Positions 14,619 to 20,753 of a DNA stretch of 23,198 nt are shown here, piece after piece. The notes beneath the pieces are model-generated. The model saw only the letters and a program-made list of their open reading frames with translations. It was not told where the DNA came from and made no database searches. Each line of letters opens with the position of its first letter. Within the stretch, counting starts at the first letter, position 1. The position numbers were made by a program, and so were the translations under genes. This DNA is from Pedosphaera sp. (lineage in GTDB: Bacteria; Verrucomicrobiota; Verrucomicrobiia; Limisphaerales; SIBH01): contig JANOQV010000259.1 of assembly GCA_031414955.1 (NCBI GenBank), positions 1-23,198 on the forward strand. The letters run 5' to 3'.

Positions 14619-16844
14619 CTACCGCGCCGCATCTGTCAGCCGCGCCGCGTAAACTTTCCGCGCGTGTTCGTAGGCGGCTCGGGCGTCCTCCATCTCGGCC
14701 GGCTTGTAGGTGCGCTGCTTCTGGCCCCAGCACACGTCCACTCCCTTGAGGCACCACTCGATGCTCTGGCGCTCGCGCACAGGCTTGCCCTCCACCGTGA
14801 CCCAGATCGGATTACTGTGGGAGGTGGGGAAGATGCGCAGCGCCACCCAACTGCTACGGTCGATCTTCGCCTCGAAGGTCACGTCGCGCATTTTGCCGTC
14901 GGCCACGAATTCCTGCCTGGCCACGGACTGGCCGTTGACGATCAGTTCGATGGGCACGGTCTTGGTCTCACCAATGCGCGCTTTCTCGATCTGCCAGGTG
15001 AAACGATTCTTCGCCACCGTGTTGATTATGTCATCAAGCATTGCGGCGACTTTCGCCGTGGCCCGAATCGTCGTGGGTTTGTCCACCCGGAGTTCGCTGC
15101 CGTTCTCGCCCACCGCCGCGTCGTTCACCTTGAAGTCGATGAGATGGCTGTAGCCGTCGCTGACGTAAGTGCGGCCGAGGCGGACACCTTCGCACCAGTC
15201 GTCGTAGGTGAGCTTGCCGTCGAGTTTCACGTAGCTGCGCCCGAGACCGACGCGATCGCCATAGATGCACGGGAAATCTGTTTCGCCGCTGGCCCGGATG
15301 CGGAAGCCGACGTTCAAGCTGTGATACCACATGGTCAATTCTGCGGTCGGATCGGTATCGACGGTCGAAATGAAATCAACGGCCGGCACCAGCTTGCCGT
15401 CCGGCCCGGGCACGTCGTGGGTGATGTCCACGATGAACTCATTCGCGCCGATGCCGTCGTAGCGCGGCTGCTGGTAGCCCAGTGTTTCACCACGCGGCAC
15501 TTGAATGCCATTGCCGGAATGCGCCGGGCCGGTCACCGCGCCCTGCTTCTTCGCCCATTTAAGCGTGTTCAGCCCGAGCGTCGGCCAGTGATCCTTCGAG
15601 ACACCGCCGGGATACATCTGTTCCTTGAGCCGCAGCAGCACAAGGTGCCCGCTTTGGTGCGAACCGAACCCGCTCACTTCGATGTCGTAGCGCAGCAGGT
15701 AGGGATATTGCGAAACCTTGTCCACCGCGCCGCAGAAAAACTGCTTCTGAAAATCAAAACACGGCCCCCAGGTCAGGTTCGCGCCGATCTTCAAGTCTTC
15801 GCCCTTGCAGTGGCGGAACATGTCTTCGGCAAACACGCCTTCGGTCGGCTTCACGTAATGAGCGCAGCCCGCCGCGTGAATGTGATGGTCGCCCGACCAC
15901 CAGCCGAACTTCGCCGGGTCCACCCAACGGTCGGTCTTGAAGGACAGCTCCTTCGTGGCGGCGATGATGGCGTGCGAAGATTTCTTCACGATCGATTCCG
16001 GCCCGCGCGAAAGCTCCACCGTGTAACGGCCCGCCGGCAATTTCATTTTCTCGCCGTCGCCGCGATAAACCTGATCGTGGAACGCAAAGTCCGGAGCCAG
16101 GCGCTTGCTCCGCGCCGGGTAAACGCGGTTCTGCTGATCACGAATGACGAACGCCGCGATGGTCGGCTCGTTGCTGTCGTCGCGCACACGCAGCGTGACC
16201 TCCTGCGCCGGGCGCGCGGTGAACAGCACATCCACCTCGTTGCGATAGCCGATGTCCTGCGTCCCCTGCCCCACGTTGAAGGAGAACTTGCCTTCGCGCT
16301 TCCCTGCGTCGCGGCTGTAAAGCTGGATGATGCGATATTCGACCGCCAGGCCACCGAGTGTGGCGCTCATCGGCTGCGCATCGAACATGGCGAGATCTAG
16401 CCAGCGATTGGCCACGTCCTCGGCGGGAGAATTGAAGAGCCGCTGCGCATTCGGGCTTACAGCTTTTAGTGGCGCGGTCGTGCCGGATTCGTTCGCCACC
16501 TTGACCAGGAACACGCGCCAGCCCGATTCGTCCAGTTCTGGCTTGGCCTCACCCACCGCGACCTTCACCCGCATCTCGGGATTGATGCTCACGCCGAACA
16601 GCACATGCCGGTCGAGCACCGTCTGGATTTGCTGGCTGGCTTCGGCAGCGGGCAAGGCGGGCGCGTCCCTGAGTTGCTTCAACTCGGCGTCGCTCAATGG
16701 CGTGCCCAGATAAGCCAGCGCGTCGGTGACACGCGTGACTTGCGCCGCCAGCGGCTGCACTTCGACATTGGGAACGATGGGGAAGGATGCCGCAGTGGCA
16801 GCCAGCCCCAACAAGCACAGCAAGACGACAATGAGTTGGCGCAT
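14619..16844 (-). CDS. CehA/McbA family metallohydrolase (PHP-like), secreted
   Basis: GWWSGDHHIH, GHLVLL, GPAHSG, ASGETDFPC, SHSNPIW; signal peptide MRQLIVVLLCLLGLAATAA from ATG 16844. Confidence 0.85.
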   Translation of the reverse strand: MRQLIVVLLCLLGLAATAASFPIVPNVEVQPLAAQVTRVTDALAYLGTPLSDAELKQLRDAPALPAAEASQQIQTVLDRHVLFGVSINPEMRVKVAVGEAKPELDESGWRVFLVKVANESGTTAPLKAVSPNAQRLFNSPAEDVANRWLDLAMFDAQPMSATLGGLAVEYRIIQLYSRDAGKREGKFSFNVGQGTQDIGYRNEVDVLFTARPAQEVTLRVRDDSNEPTIAAFVIRDQQNRVYPARSKRLAPDFAFHDQVYRGDGEKMKLPAGRYTVELSRGPESIVKKSSHAIIAATKELSFKTDRWVDPAKFGWWSGDHHIHAAGCAHYVKPTEGVFAEDMFRHCKGEDLKIGANLTWGPCFDFQKQFFCGAVDKVSQYPYLLRYDIEVSGFGSHQSGHLVLLRLKEQMYPGGVSKDHWPTLGLNTLKWAKKQGAVTGPAHSGNGIQVPRGETLGYQQPRYDGIGANEFIVDITHDVPGPDGKLVPAVDFISTVDTDPTAELTMWYHSLNVGFRIRASGETDFPCIYGDRVGLGRSYVKLDGKLTYDDWCEGVRLGRTYVSDGYSHLIDFKVNDAAVGENGSELRVDKPTTIRATAKVAAMLDDIINTVAKNRFTWQIEKARIGETKTVPIELIVNGQSVARQEFVADGKMRDVTFEAKIDRSSWVALRIFPTSHSNPIWVTVEGKPVRERQSIEWCLKGVDVCWGQKQRTYKPAEMEDARAAYEHARKVYAARLTDAAR

Positions 16845-16914
16845 AATTCCTTTCGGGTGATTGCGGCGGATGATAGCGGGCGGCACGCAGAGGGGAAGCG
16901 CGATTCTCTGGAAC

Positions 16915-17014
16915 GACGACACTGGAAAGTGTCGTCACCTGCCGACAAGAATGTCGGCGCTACAAACGTAACGCCGGCTTTCCAGCCGGCAGGTGGCGAG
17001 ACTTTCCAGTCTCG
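16915..17014. repeat. REP/BIME-like cluster: two back-to-back GTAG/GTAA-led units, each with two hairpins
   Basis: Minus-strand unit GTAGCGCCGACATTCTTGTCGGC-AGGT-GACGACACTTTCCAGTGTCGTC; plus-strand unit GTAACGCCGGCTTTCCAGCCGGC-AGGT-GGCGAGACTTTCCAGTCTCG. They are separated by AAAC; 16921-16944 is inverted to 16987-17010 with 2 mismatches. Confidence 0.8.
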
Positions 17015-17106
17015 TGTCGGTGGCTCCTCGAAGCCGCACCCTCTCACAATTCACAGCCAACTCCCGCATTGCGCCACCGAATCCTTTCCCCCAAATTCCG
17101 CGCCCT

Positions 17107-20100
17107 ATGTCGAGCCGGAAGCAGTATCCGTTCAATCTCATCGAGCCGAAGTGGCAGCAGTTCTGGGAGGAACAGCAGTCCTTCCGCGCGTTCAATCCCG
17201 GCGAAGTGCTGCCGGCGGAACATCCCTTCGCGCAACGTCACGGACTTGCGGGCAAGAAAGTTTCCGCCGCCGATTTGCCGCCGAAGTTCTATGTGCTCGA
17301 CATGTTCCCCTACCCTTCCGGCGCGGGACTGCACGTCGGGCATCCCGAAGGCTACACGGCCACGGACATTCTCGCGCGCTACAAGCGCGCCGCTGGTTCG
17401 CATGTGCTGCATCCGATGGGCTGGGACGCCTTCGGCCTGCCCGCCGAGCAATACGCCATCAAGACCGGCCAGCATCCGCGCGCGACGACCGAGGCGAACA
17501 TCGCGAACTTCACCAAGCAGATCAAAAGCCTCGGCTTCAGCTACGACTGGTCGCGCGAGGTGGACACCACCGATCCGAAATACTTCCGCTGGACGCAGTG
17601 GATTTTCCTGAAGCTCTACAACTCGTGGTTCAACCCGGAGACGAACAAGGCCGAGCCGATTGAGACCCTGAAGTTTCCAGGGGAGCTGGAATTGCCGGGC
17701 GCACAGGTAGGGCGCGGTGTCCTCACCGCGCCGCGCCTCGAATCGGAGGAGCGCCCCGGAACTGCCAACGCCTCACCCCGGCGCGCTGAGACAGCGACGC
17801 CCTACCAACTCGAAGACAAACGCCGCGCCTATCGCGACTCCAAGCGTCTCGCGTTCAGCAGCGAAGCCCCAGTGAACTGGTGTCCGGAACTCGGCACCGT
17901 GCTGGCCAACGAGGAAGTCATCGACGGCAAGAGCGAAGTGGGCGGCTTCCCCGTGGTGCGCCGGCCCATGCGCCAATGGATGCTCCGCATCACCGCCTAC
18001 GCCGAGAAACTGCTCGACGATCTCAACACGATCGACTGGAGCGACTCGCTCAAGGAGATGCAGCGGAACTGGATTGGGAAGAGCGAAGGGGCGGAGGTGG
18101 ATTTTCAGATTGGTGGCCGTGCGGACAAGATTCGCGTTTTCACGACGCGCCCCGATACGCTGTTCGGTGCGACCTACATGGTGTTGTCGCCGGAGCACAA
18201 GTTGGTCGCGGAAATCACGACGGCCGAGCAGCGCGAAGCCGTGAAGCAGTATCAGCAGTTCGCCGCCGGCAAGAGCGATCTCGAACGCACGGAACTCGCG
18301 AAGGAGAAGACCGGTGTCTTCACCGGTTCGTATGCCATCAATCCGGTGAACGGGGAGAAGATGCCCATCTGGATAGCTGACTACGTGCTCGCGAGCTACG
18401 GCACAGGTGCGATCATGGCAGTTCCATCTCATGATGCGCGCGACATGGAGTTCGCGCTCAAGTTCGACATCACAACTCAGAACGTGGTGCTGCCGCCAGA
18501 CGCTTGGTTGCGCGAGCGAGTGAGTTCCACTTTTGCAGATAAGACGATTGAAGAAATCCGCGACGTTTACAAAACCACGAATGCCTACTTCGGACAGGAA
18601 GCATTCTGTGAAACTGGAACTGCGATCAATTCAGCCAATCCTGAAATCTCCCTCAACGGCCTCCCTACCGCCGAAGCCAAAGCGAAAATCACCGCCTGGC
18701 TCGAAGCGAAGAGCCTCGGCAAGAAGACCATCAACTACAAGCTGCGCGACTGGCTCTTCAGCCGGCAGCGTTACTGGGGCGAGCCGTTCCCCATCGTGTG
18801 GAAGAAGGACGCGAATGGGAACGCGTATCACGAGGCGCTGCCGGAGAGCGCGCTGCCGTTGCTGCCGCCCGCGCTGGACGATTACAAGCCCACGCCCGAC
18901 GGCCAACCGCCGCTCGCCCGCGCGCAGGACTGGGTGAACCGGCCCGACGGCTCCGTGCGCGAAACGAACACCATGCCGCAGTGGGCGGGCAGTTGCTGGT
19001 ATTACCTGCGCTATCTCGATGCGGGGAATGATGGCACCTTTTGTTCCGCCGAGGCTGAGGAGTATTGGATGGGCGCGCCAAGCGTCGCGCAACTCGGTTT
19101 CCACGAGTGGCAGACGCGGCTCAAGGCGCTTTATGCCTTCGCTCTTAACAATCCGGAGAACCGGAAGGATTTCGTCAGCTACGACGTGGTCAGCCCGGCG
19201 GAAGCGGATTTTCTCGCCGGGAAAACAGGGCTGCATCTCGCAGGATACCGGCGGATGATCGACAACTTTGCCATCCGTCACGTCATGAACCAGCATGGTG
19301 ATGCGGAGAAGGAGCGCCAGCGCGGGCTGCTCCCAGTCAGCTTTGATGACCTGCTCCAGATTCCAGCCATCATCCACTCGGCGGATGAAGTGCGCTCCGG
19401 CGGCAAGACCGCAACGAACCTGGATCTGATCCTCTACACAAAGCGCGTTAATGGATGGCTGTACTATTTCGAAGAAGTACGGACGGCGAATGATTTGTTG
19501 GCGGCCAAGACGTTGTACAAAAAACCGGCGACGGCGAGTCATGCCGGTGAAGGCCTTGCTCAAACGCCCGAAGCGCTCCGTCGCACTGGGGAGAATCTAG
19601 CGAACACAGGGCCGCGTGGCAAGGTCACGCCCGGCGTGGACCTCTACGTTGGCGGCACCGAGCACGCCGTGCTGCACCTGCTCTACGCGCGCTTCTGGCA
19701 CAAGGTGCTGTTCGACCTCGGCTATGTCTCCACGCCCGAGCCGTTCTTCAAGCTCGTGAACCAGGGACTCATCCTCGGCGAGGACGGCCAGAAGATGTCC
19801 AAGTCGCGCGGCAACACGGTCAACCCCGACGACATCCTCGTGGAATTCGGCGCGGATGCCTTCCGCCTTTACGAAATGTTCATGGGGCCGCTGGAGATGG
19901 TGAAGCCGTGGAACACGAAGGGCGTGGAAGGCGTGTATCGTTTCCTCGGCCGCGTCTGGCGTTTGTTCGTCGATGAAGCGAGCGAGACGGAGTTCGAGCA
20001 GACGCAGACCGCCACCGATCCGGCGCAGCAGCGCGAGTTGCTGAAGTTGATCAAGCTCCACGCCGGCATCAAGGACGCCGAGGCGACGAAGGAACAGCTC

Positions 20101-20616
20101 AAGGCACTGCACGCCTGCATCAAGAAGGTGACGGAAGATCTCGACGGCCTGCGCTTCAACACCGCCATCTCGGCCATGATGGTCTTCGCCAACGACGCCA
20201 TGAACTGGGAAACGAAGCCGGTCTCCGTGCTGCGCGAGTTCCTGATTCTGCTCCAGCCTTTCGCCCCGCACATCGCGGAGGAGTTGTGGGAGAAATTGTC
20301 CAAAGTCCAAAGTACAAAGTCCAAAGTCACGGACGACGGTGCGGCGACCTTGGACCTTGGACTTTGGACTTTGGACTTGTCCTACCAGCCCTGGCCGAAG
20401 CATGACCCCGCCCTGCTCGTCGAAGACACGCTGGAGATTCCCGTGCAGGTGAACGGCAAGCTCCGCGACGTAATCCGCGTGGCGGCGACGGCAACGCAGC
20501 CGGAGATCGAAGCCCTCGCGCTCGCTTCGGAGAAGGCGCAGCAGTTCATGGGCGGCAAGGCGGTGAAGAAAATCATCGTGGTACCCAAGAAGCTGGTGAA
20601 CATCGTGGTGACCTGA
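17107..20616 (+). CDS. leuS: Leucine--tRNA ligase (1169 aa) with multiple in-frame insertions
   Basis: [18 protein letters not shown] (HIGH), [14 protein letters not shown]1 editing motifs FTTRPDT and [60 protein letters not shown] at 17107. Confidence 0.97.
17706..17806. repeat. GTAG-type REP doublet inserted in frame within leuS
   Basis: GGTAGGGCGCGGTGTCCTCACCGCGCCG...CGGCGCGCTGAGACAGCGACGCCCTACC; terminal inverted GGTAGGGCG/CGCCCTACC; GTAG to CTAC spans 99 bp (33 codons). Confidence 0.82.
19525..19589. ncRNA. Candidate structured RNA element at the 3' end of the inserted nuclease domain
   Basis: Closing stem GCGACGG (19528-34) / CCGTCGC (19578-84) encloses GAGT-CAT-GCC-ggtgaa-GGC-CTT-GCTC and a CGC-ccgaa-GCG hairpin, a possible three-way junction. 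Folded by eye only. Confidence 0.4.
19594..19622 (-). promoter_or_regulatory. Putative antisense sigma70 promoter inside leuS at the right boundary of the nuclease insert
   Basis: The minus strand reads TTGCCA-N17-TAGATT (-35 at 19622-19617, -10 at 19599-19594), pointing into the structured element. Confidence 0.5.
20298..20376. repeat. Inverted heptamer tandem repeats forming a long hairpin, in frame in leuS
   Basis: (GTCCAAA)x4 (one copy GTACAAA) + GTC, a 17-nt loop, then GAC + (C/TTTGGAC)x4; translates as [26 protein letters not shown]. Confidence 0.88.
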
Positions 20617-20646
20617 CGCCGCGCGCGCCTGGGCTTCGAGCGGATG

Positions 20647-20678
20647 GAAAAGAGGAAACGGGCCGAGCCCGTTTCCTC
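20647..20678 (-). terminator. Intrinsic terminator between convergent leuS and the beta-propeller gene
   Basis: Perfect 12-bp stem GAGGAAACGGGC-cga-GCCCGTTTCCTC (20652-20678); a T-run follows on the minus strand; possibly bidirectional. Confidence 0.7.
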
Positions 20679-20753
20679 GTATCATTCCTGACTGACCACC
20701 AAGGAAGGACGGGCAGTCACCCGTTCCAAGGCCCTCGCCCCGTCACCGCCCGA

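Follow-up and report, generated by a model that had tools for sequence, protein, structure and literature searches.

Why does the leucyl-tRNA synthetase (LeuRS) gene, leuS, of a verrucomicrobial genome encode a protein of 1169 amino acids (aa), when the LeuRS of Thermus thermophilus (structure 1h3n) has 878 aa, and did its additional segments arrive as the exchangeable parts of a dedicated system or independently of one another? The gene lies in a window of 23,198 nucleotides (nt), which is the whole stretch of DNA that was analyzed, from Pedosphaera sp. of the order Limisphaerales (assembly GCA_031414955.1, contig JANOQV010000259.1). A previous sequence-only reading of the window proposed that permissive loops of leuS act as slots, whose cargo is swapped by recombination between conserved flanks. 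From our analysis, the locus is rather probably a single working leuS whose loops took up two kinds of in-frame insertion, namely repeat-derived segments and protein modules. Repeats within genes are already known; a PBECR3 domain inside an essential synthetase did not turn up in the searched literature. In what follows, G-numbers denote genomes and P-numbers denote proteins in the comparison sets, G000 being the genome of the window. The gene and its two catalytic motifs are as follows:

17107..20616, + strand: leuS, bacterial-type leucyl-tRNA synthetase, 1169 aa (open reading frame and TIGR00396)
17332..17343, + strand: HIGH motif (HVGH, aa 76-79), from motif reading
19792..19806, + strand: KMSKS motif (aa 896-900), from motif reading

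The whole protein matched the family TIGR00396 (leuS_bact) with 922.7 bits against a cut-off of 548.4, and the Pfam families found on it comprise the editing domain, the class I catalytic pieces, and the anticodon-binding domain. As the sequence-only reading had noted, one open frame runs through all of the inserts and every motif is present, including the editing signatures (TTRPDT at aa 346-351, a second motif of the GTG..HD type, and the CP1 editing domain PF13603 with E 4e-61). A family search of the whole genome (6.55 Mb in 313 contigs, 95.9% complete, 5.84% contamination) found no second leuS, the weaker matches being other class I synthetases; the scenario of a second, compact leuS beside a non-functional copy is thus not what we found. 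Because a genome of this completeness yielded no other leuS, we infer that it is the single working leucyl-tRNA synthetase gene of the cell and that it serves the aminoacylation of tRNA-Leu. The unusual length, which had also been pointed out before, is distributed over four points at which the alignment to the T. thermophilus enzyme breaks (aa 173-245, 458-490, 656-843, and 1063-1086), the stretch at aa 458-490 amounting to ~24 extra residues. The domain that precedes KMSKS in the T. thermophilus enzyme, which we take to be the leucine-specific domain of the solved structure, is absent from the leuS of the window. At the corresponding position (site F, aa 892-895 of the G000 protein), a leucine-specific domain of 76-78 aa was seen in only four aligned relatives (G026, G027, G031, and G040).

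The main protein module occupies the third of these points:

19072..19635, + strand: site E, 188-aa PBECR3 insert (aa 656-843), with a predicted BECR fold and a predicted ribonuclease (RNase); Pfam core at aa 698-808

This segment had been read as a nuclease cassette, and aa 698-808 indeed matched PBECR3 (PF18812) with E 6e-18 and 65.2 bits against a cut-off of 30. The insert is joined to the synthetase between WMG and APS... on one side and between ...KVTP and GVDLY on the other. An intein or homing endonuclease was considered and rejected, as there are no splicing motifs at the junctions and the Pfam scan detected no Hint, intein, or LAGLIDADG family. A HMMER search with the insert against 1.84 billion representatives yielded 1817 hits; among the best 36 of these that were scanned, 34 had no aminoacyl-tRNA synthetase domain and two were LeuRS fragments. 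Many of the 34 are of the polyvalent type (with DarA_N, LPD3, LPD37, SLT, RadC, ART-PolyVal, or PBECR1) and the others have PBECR3 alone, and phage polyvalent proteins match the insert at E 6e-12. Another housekeeping-type enzyme was also encountered as a host, a family 2 glycosyltransferase (P0035, 526 aa) with PBECR3 between its two halves.

The AlphaFold2 (AF2) model of the PBECR3 domain is confident (predicted local distance difference test, pLDDT, 90.2; predicted template modeling score, pTM, 0.80), and its closest solved folds according to VIA-align are RNase toxins of the BECR group (BrnT, Z 6.3; a Salmonella toxin, Z 5.8; CdiA-CT, Z 5.6; colicin D, Z 4.4). RNase activity is itself a prediction even for the family as a whole. 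We then aligned 20 embedded copies with 39 free domains and found that the columns conserved to at least 95% in the free domains keep the same top residue in 80-100% of the embedded copies (e.g., D719, H725, H730, E736, D748, K779, E790, and R792). Across all 20 copies, H725 and H730 do not vary and T802/T820 are conserved, and the insert of the window retains all of the family-invariant residues. The ratio of nonsynonymous to synonymous substitution (dN/dS) is 0.34-0.58 in the insert against 0.09-0.18 in the core; the insert value is well below 1 except for the G012/G013 pair, whose few differences do not allow a measurement. Neither stop codons nor frame breaks were found in any embedded copy examined. 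Since the conserved His, Glu, Lys, Arg, and Thr residues are kept under moderate purifying selection, the insert is likely a working RNA-binding or RNA-cutting module and not debris. Between G000 and G008, the insert has a synonymous divergence (dS) of 0.91 and a dN/dS of 0.52, and the core has 0.49 and 0.15, respectively. The GC content at third codon positions (GC3) of the insert is below that of the core, and the dS of the insert may be an overestimate owing to its weaker codon bias.

The distribution of this architecture was then estimated in several collections. A collection of 5.8 billion proteins contained 12 further LeuRS with the insert, the named ones being from Verrucomicrobiae/Verrucomicrobiota bins. 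A query spanning both PBECR3 junctions matched 22 of 401 genomes (G000 included) and 16 of 165 genera in an order-wide sample, with at least 18 of the 22 matches inside leuS-length frames, and only two of 401 genomes in a phylum-wide sample, G000 and one in which the match is outside leuS. The position of the insert is the same leuS loop across the carriers of the order, and in four of five high-quality carrier genomes the PBECR3-containing LeuRS is the sole leuS. The carrier G131 also has a compact leuS (G131:C5:134885-137422), whose family match is unbroken across the position of site E. A contig search with the insert across genomes gave 599 pattern matches, none of which was confirmed, and the searched literature did not contain a PBECR3 domain in LeuRS.

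To follow the descent of the insert, its presence was placed on a core LeuRS tree (45 rows and 878 columns, with the variable blocks removed), on which it requires at least 10 changes, at least seven of them forced by starred branches. In the tree of the PBECR3 domain itself, 17 of the 20 embedded copies fall into one clade, which is compatible with a single origin. The inserts of G008 and P0161 pair in the domain tree with 99* support, and the core data reject a clade of G008 and P0161 (delta log-likelihood 174; approximately unbiased (AU) test, p 2e-6); the history of the insert and that of the core are at odds in one instance or more. Between most pairs, more changes have accumulated in the insert than in the core (46% against 87% identity for G000 and G008), and pairwise identity among embedded copies goes down to 29%. 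In the pair P0154/P0158 the order is reversed, with the insert 97% and the core 86% identical. Along this pair, the segments from aa 621 to 1169 are 78-100% identical (mostly 92-100%) and those upstream of aa 621 are 18-100% identical, which suggests that the two alleles are mosaic, unless the metagenome contigs are chimeric. The conflict between cassette and core histories, together with one mosaic allele pair, is indicative that intragenic recombination likely moves protein cassettes between leuS alleles.

The second kind of insertion is derived from repeats, of which the gene contains two:

17623..17841, + strand: site A, 73-aa stretch without counterpart in T. thermophilus LeuRS (alignment)
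17706..17806, + strand: GTAG-type repetitive extragenic palindrome (REP) doublet, REPIN-like, 101 nt, translated in frame (inverted arms, dispersed copies)
20298..20376, + strand: site G, hairpin of tandem heptamers (GTCCAAA-type arms), read as KVQSTKSKV... (inverted repeat, dispersed copies)

About half of site A is common to the order, and the remainder varies among relatives. The element within it, ~102 nt in length, has sharp ends (GGTAGGGCG... and ...CGCCCTACC) and is built of two stem-loop units in inverted orientation, separated by a variable spacer; the unit bears GTAG at its outer end, and the whole agrees with the definition of a GTAG-type REP doublet. Using nhmmer with a profile built from seven copies, we found 50 distinct loci of this family that have common sharp ends and unrelated flanks, and the copy at 17706-17806 was not found at the matching site in the relatives examined. 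One G that is present in most other family copies is missing from the leuS copy (window position 17789). Several other intragenic copies show single-base differences in the same arm, by which the encoded tail ...DSDALP becomes ...(T/A)PY. The arms of the heptamer hairpin are 81-95% complementary, and its DNA fold has a z-score of -6.4 against shuffles. The hairpin is also present at site G in G008, G007, and G009, and the four rows that share it cluster together in the core LeuRS tree. Both repeats had been recognized by the sequence-only reading.

When leuS was compared with the genome in 40-nt tiles, only two stretches were multi-copy: 17692-17821, which recurs in up to 35 other places, and 20287-20386, which recurs in 23. 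Heptamer runs number 41 in the genome, some of them as hairpin pairs and some inside frames. The same REP is read in frame (VGRGVLTAP...RRAE...) in at least six other genes, beside or between Pfam domains in five of them:

DUF7133/HEAT/cytochrome c protein: in frame, next to or between Pfam domains
DnaE-like polymerase: in frame, DNA_pol3 finger/HHH_6
Fer4/DmsC protein: in frame, Fer4_11/DmsC
Molybdopterin oxidoreductase: in frame, Molybdopterin/Molydop_binding
UvrA: in frame, next to or between Pfam domains
NuoJ: in frame, in the C-terminal tail

In a UvrA of this genome (G000:C12:38186-41287, L084), the reading frame includes two peptides that derive from repeats and differ from each other (VGRAVLSAPR... 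and ...TRRDAGGT...). Among other synthetase genes, valS (G000:C122:198-312; 28 other places) and metG (internally, G000:C126:16448-16502; 23 other places) each have one in-frame multi-copy segment and ileS has none by the same tiling. In-frame repeat insertion is a genome-wide phenomenon of an already known kind, as with the Rickettsia palindromic elements (RPEs) and the intragenic GTAG REPs. Since the repeat families are also found in valS, metG, uvrA, the dnaE-like gene, and others, leuS is not special in this respect and the claim of a dedicated gene-internal accessory-module system loses its ground.

An alignment of leuS from 36 relatives revealed six variable blocks, which range over 0-39 aa at site A, 0-39 at B, 0-66 at C, 8-71 at D, 0-182 at E, and 2-22 at G. 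With a DNA fold z of -2.5 or lower against shuffles taken as the mark of a hairpin-type insert, such inserts were detected in one relative or another at sites A, B, E, and G and never at C or D; at site A, GTAG-type repeats of different families are present in several lineages. Folded domains were found at site C, within the editing domain: IF3_N (PF05198, E 4e-17) in the leuS of G034 (L061:623-3913) and MshEN (PF05157, E 9e-18) in P0161, a LeuRS of 1282 aa which carries PBECR3 at site E too and hence two unrelated folded inserts in one enzyme. Site B of the G034 leuS is filled as well, by 39 aa of hairpin-type sequence (DNA fold z -8.8). The idea of exchangeable slots therefore holds to the extent that the same loops carry different cargo in relatives, and it fails for the repeat cargo, which consists of independent, genome-wide insertions.

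One further cassette of the window belongs to this set:

18487..18597, + strand: site D cassette (aa 461-497), within a low-GC3 patch (alignment, folding)

The cassette is protein-like and not a hairpin. It is 83% identical to that of G034 and at most 43% identical to all others; it is also shared with P0158 and is absent from same-genus relatives. The codon-atypical patch that had been described at ~18370-18670 is real, with GC 0.51-0.535 at 18400-18700 against ~0.6-0.7 elsewhere and GC3 falling from 80-95% in the core to 50-68% at aa 441-520. A recent transfer of site D between G000 and G034 was rejected, since an identity of 42-49% at third positions indicates that the shared DNA is old. 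Two stretches that had been taken for extra loops, at 17200-17280 and 19975-20075, had to be struck from the list, as they are single-copy and of constant length in all relatives and are thus ordinary sequence conserved throughout the clade, not variable cargo.

In the explanation that we prefer, a single working leuS took up two kinds of insertion in loops that are presumably exposed on the enzyme. The REP doublet and the heptamer hairpin are copies of the dispersed hairpin repeats of the genome, likely selfish DNA that lands everywhere by independent insertion; in an essential gene, only copies in a tolerant loop and with a stop-free frame would survive, and these would be translated as passenger peptides. 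PBECR3 would be of phage or conjugative-element origin; it occupies a loop that immediately precedes the second half of the catalytic fold. Entry into leuS probably happened once within the order; many losses likely followed, as did occasional moves between leuS alleles by homologous recombination via near-invariant flanks.

Other explanations have to be weighed against this one, beginning with the assembly. That the inserts are artefacts of metagenome assembly or binning, with repeats or foreign fragments misjoined into leuS, appears extremely improbable to us, even though the genome is a bin of 313 contigs with contamination of 5.84% and four bins of the same genus have leuS interrupted by contig ends (at the position of the site A repeat in G010, further into the gene in the other three). 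The frame is unbroken through all inserts, and exact unitigs from two public sediment-metagenome runs, which may be the source sample, cover 17709-17913 and 18964-19680 and thereby bridge the right REP junction and both PBECR3 junctions; moreover, three other genomes have the heptamer hairpin at this very site, and more than 30 other records contain PBECR3. Run contigs that skip parts of the gene (X1-X4; e.g., from 19012 to 19635 in X3/X4) were not used, as their short sides and 90% likeness mean that they may come from other organisms. The proposal that leuS is a dedicated accessory-module system, with loops as slots and cargo swapped between conserved flanks, is in our estimation unlikely. 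It draws on the unrelated cargo at six variable sites, the patchiness of PBECR3 on the core tree, the conflict around G008 and P0161, the P0154/P0158 mosaic, and the site D cassette that G000, G034, and P0158 have and nearer relatives lack. However, nothing about the repeat cargo is peculiar to leuS, the repeats inserted at a given site are of different families and have different boundaries, which fits separate insertions and not swaps, the site D DNA shared by G000 and G034 is old, and a Pfam scan of the eight neighboring or antisense open reading frames detected no immunity-like gene, recombinase, or mobile gene, nor other such machinery, beside leuS. Swapping of cargo by recombination, as once envisaged for all of the inserts, therefore retains a footing in the G008/P0161 conflict and the P0154/P0158 mosaic and has none for the repeats, which arrive independently.

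It is less easy to set aside, albeit still doubtful, that the PBECR3 insert is a tolerated and functionless passenger that is slowly decaying and being lost. Its dN/dS is three to five times that of the core, its GC3 is lower, its copies have diverged widely, and the junction-spanning query did not find it in ~95% of the sampled genomes of the order; this high dN/dS and the absence from most lineages make a nearly neutral passenger possible. On the other side stand the family-conserved columns kept by the embedded copies, the frames without stops or breaks, the confident predicted fold (pLDDT 90), and the dN/dS well below 1 in all but the near-identical G012/G013 pair. Besides these features of the insert, several results weigh against the two-kinds explanation that we prefer. 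The PBECR3 domain tree is a quick tree, the careful search being unfinished; the groups for the AU test were chosen post hoc, with the trees already known; and a second conflict, of G016 with P0159/P0160, was not upheld, as the core data do not reject it (AU p 0.48). The mosaic alleles stem from metagenome contigs and are possibly chimeric assemblies. The structural matches to BECR toxins are modest, with the top rows at Z 6.3-3.6 and all below 8, and Foldseek returned nothing at E <= 1e-3 for the PBECR3 model against the PDB. The whole-protein AF2 model, built with 24 close relatives (mean pLDDT 57.7, pTM 0.35), is of too low a quality to show where the inserts lie with respect to the path of the tRNA, or whether the repeat peptides are exposed or disordered. 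Lastly, of 12 Y1_Tnp matches in the genome only C89:1058-1402 has a REP copy nearby, at 290 nt and on one side only; a RAYT gene linked to the REP family is thus only suggested. A bolder form of our explanation can also be imagined, in which PBECR3 is an active RNase that makes LeuRS a conflict effector, cutting tRNA-Leu or phage RNA presented at the synthetase as a defense or stress switch, in which the cassette would be an intragenic mobile module spreading via the near-invariant flanks, and in which the LeuRS of the order would be a general scaffold for PBECR3, MshEN, and IF3_N; we regard this as improbable.

The surroundings of the gene contain further repeats:

20642..20688, + strand: hairpin just 3' of the leuS stop codon, likely a terminator (inverted-repeat pair)
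16916..17015, no strand assigned: intergenic inverted repeat upstream of leuS, of a second dispersed repeat family (43 high-scoring segment pairs genome-wide)

Several copies of the latter family flank both sides of a Y1_Tnp match elsewhere in the genome (G000:C241:38515-38748). The open reading frame divergent from leuS (14619-16922, - strand, 767 aa) has no Pfam family at E <= 1e-3.

The REP and hairpin insertions illustrate how much selfish DNA an essential enzyme can absorb in frame, as is already documented for Verrucomicrobia and Rickettsia. It is less expected that, in dozens of species, the only LeuRS houses a domain of the phage-conflict RNase type whose conserved residues are intact. 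If PBECR3 is active, a tRNA-charging enzyme would be coupled to RNA cleavage, and nature would have provided a domain insertion that leaves a synthetase functional; the mosaic alleles suggest that modules may be shuffled by recombination inside an essential gene. Among known systems, the GTAG REPs are described in parts of Di Nocera et al. (2013, PMC3733652) as lying within genes in some cases, chiefly in Opitutus terrae, a verrucomicrobium, and as forming dimers in uvrA. The repeat in leuS is like these in being a short GTAG-tagged palindrome in an inverted doublet with tens of dispersed copies, some read through inside genes, and uvrA is hit in this genome also. In contrast, the hit-gene list of that paper (Additional file 3) has no leucyl-tRNA synthetase entry, and one gene here combines two repeat families with protein-domain inserts, unlike what its pertinent sections describe. 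The RPEs are palindromic mobile elements that occur in frame in many unrelated functional genes (Ogata et al., 2000, 2002; in part of the review PMC10969869). They likewise add an in-frame peptide and do not destroy the host protein, whereas the element here is of another family, phylum, and size (~102 nt against ~150 bp) and has the look of a REP doublet. As another class I synthetase with a non-canonical enzyme-like domain, isoleucyl-tRNA synthetase with a GNAT domain (NCBIfam NF040702, a low-scoring row in our search) is comparable, although it differs in enzyme, in domain, and in the position of the latter. PBECR domains are known from polyvalent proteins of phages and conjugative elements (Iyer et al., 2017, PMC5512222), whose passages on synthetases and tRNA make no mention of a fusion to an aminoacyl-tRNA synthetase. 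The insert in leuS belongs to the same Pfam family, PF18812, and its nearest relatives in sequence and fold are polyvalent proteins with DarA_N, LPD3, ART-PolyVal, and MuF-C; unlike the injected multi-effector proteins treated in those parts of the paper, it is an internal insert of a chromosomal housekeeping enzyme.

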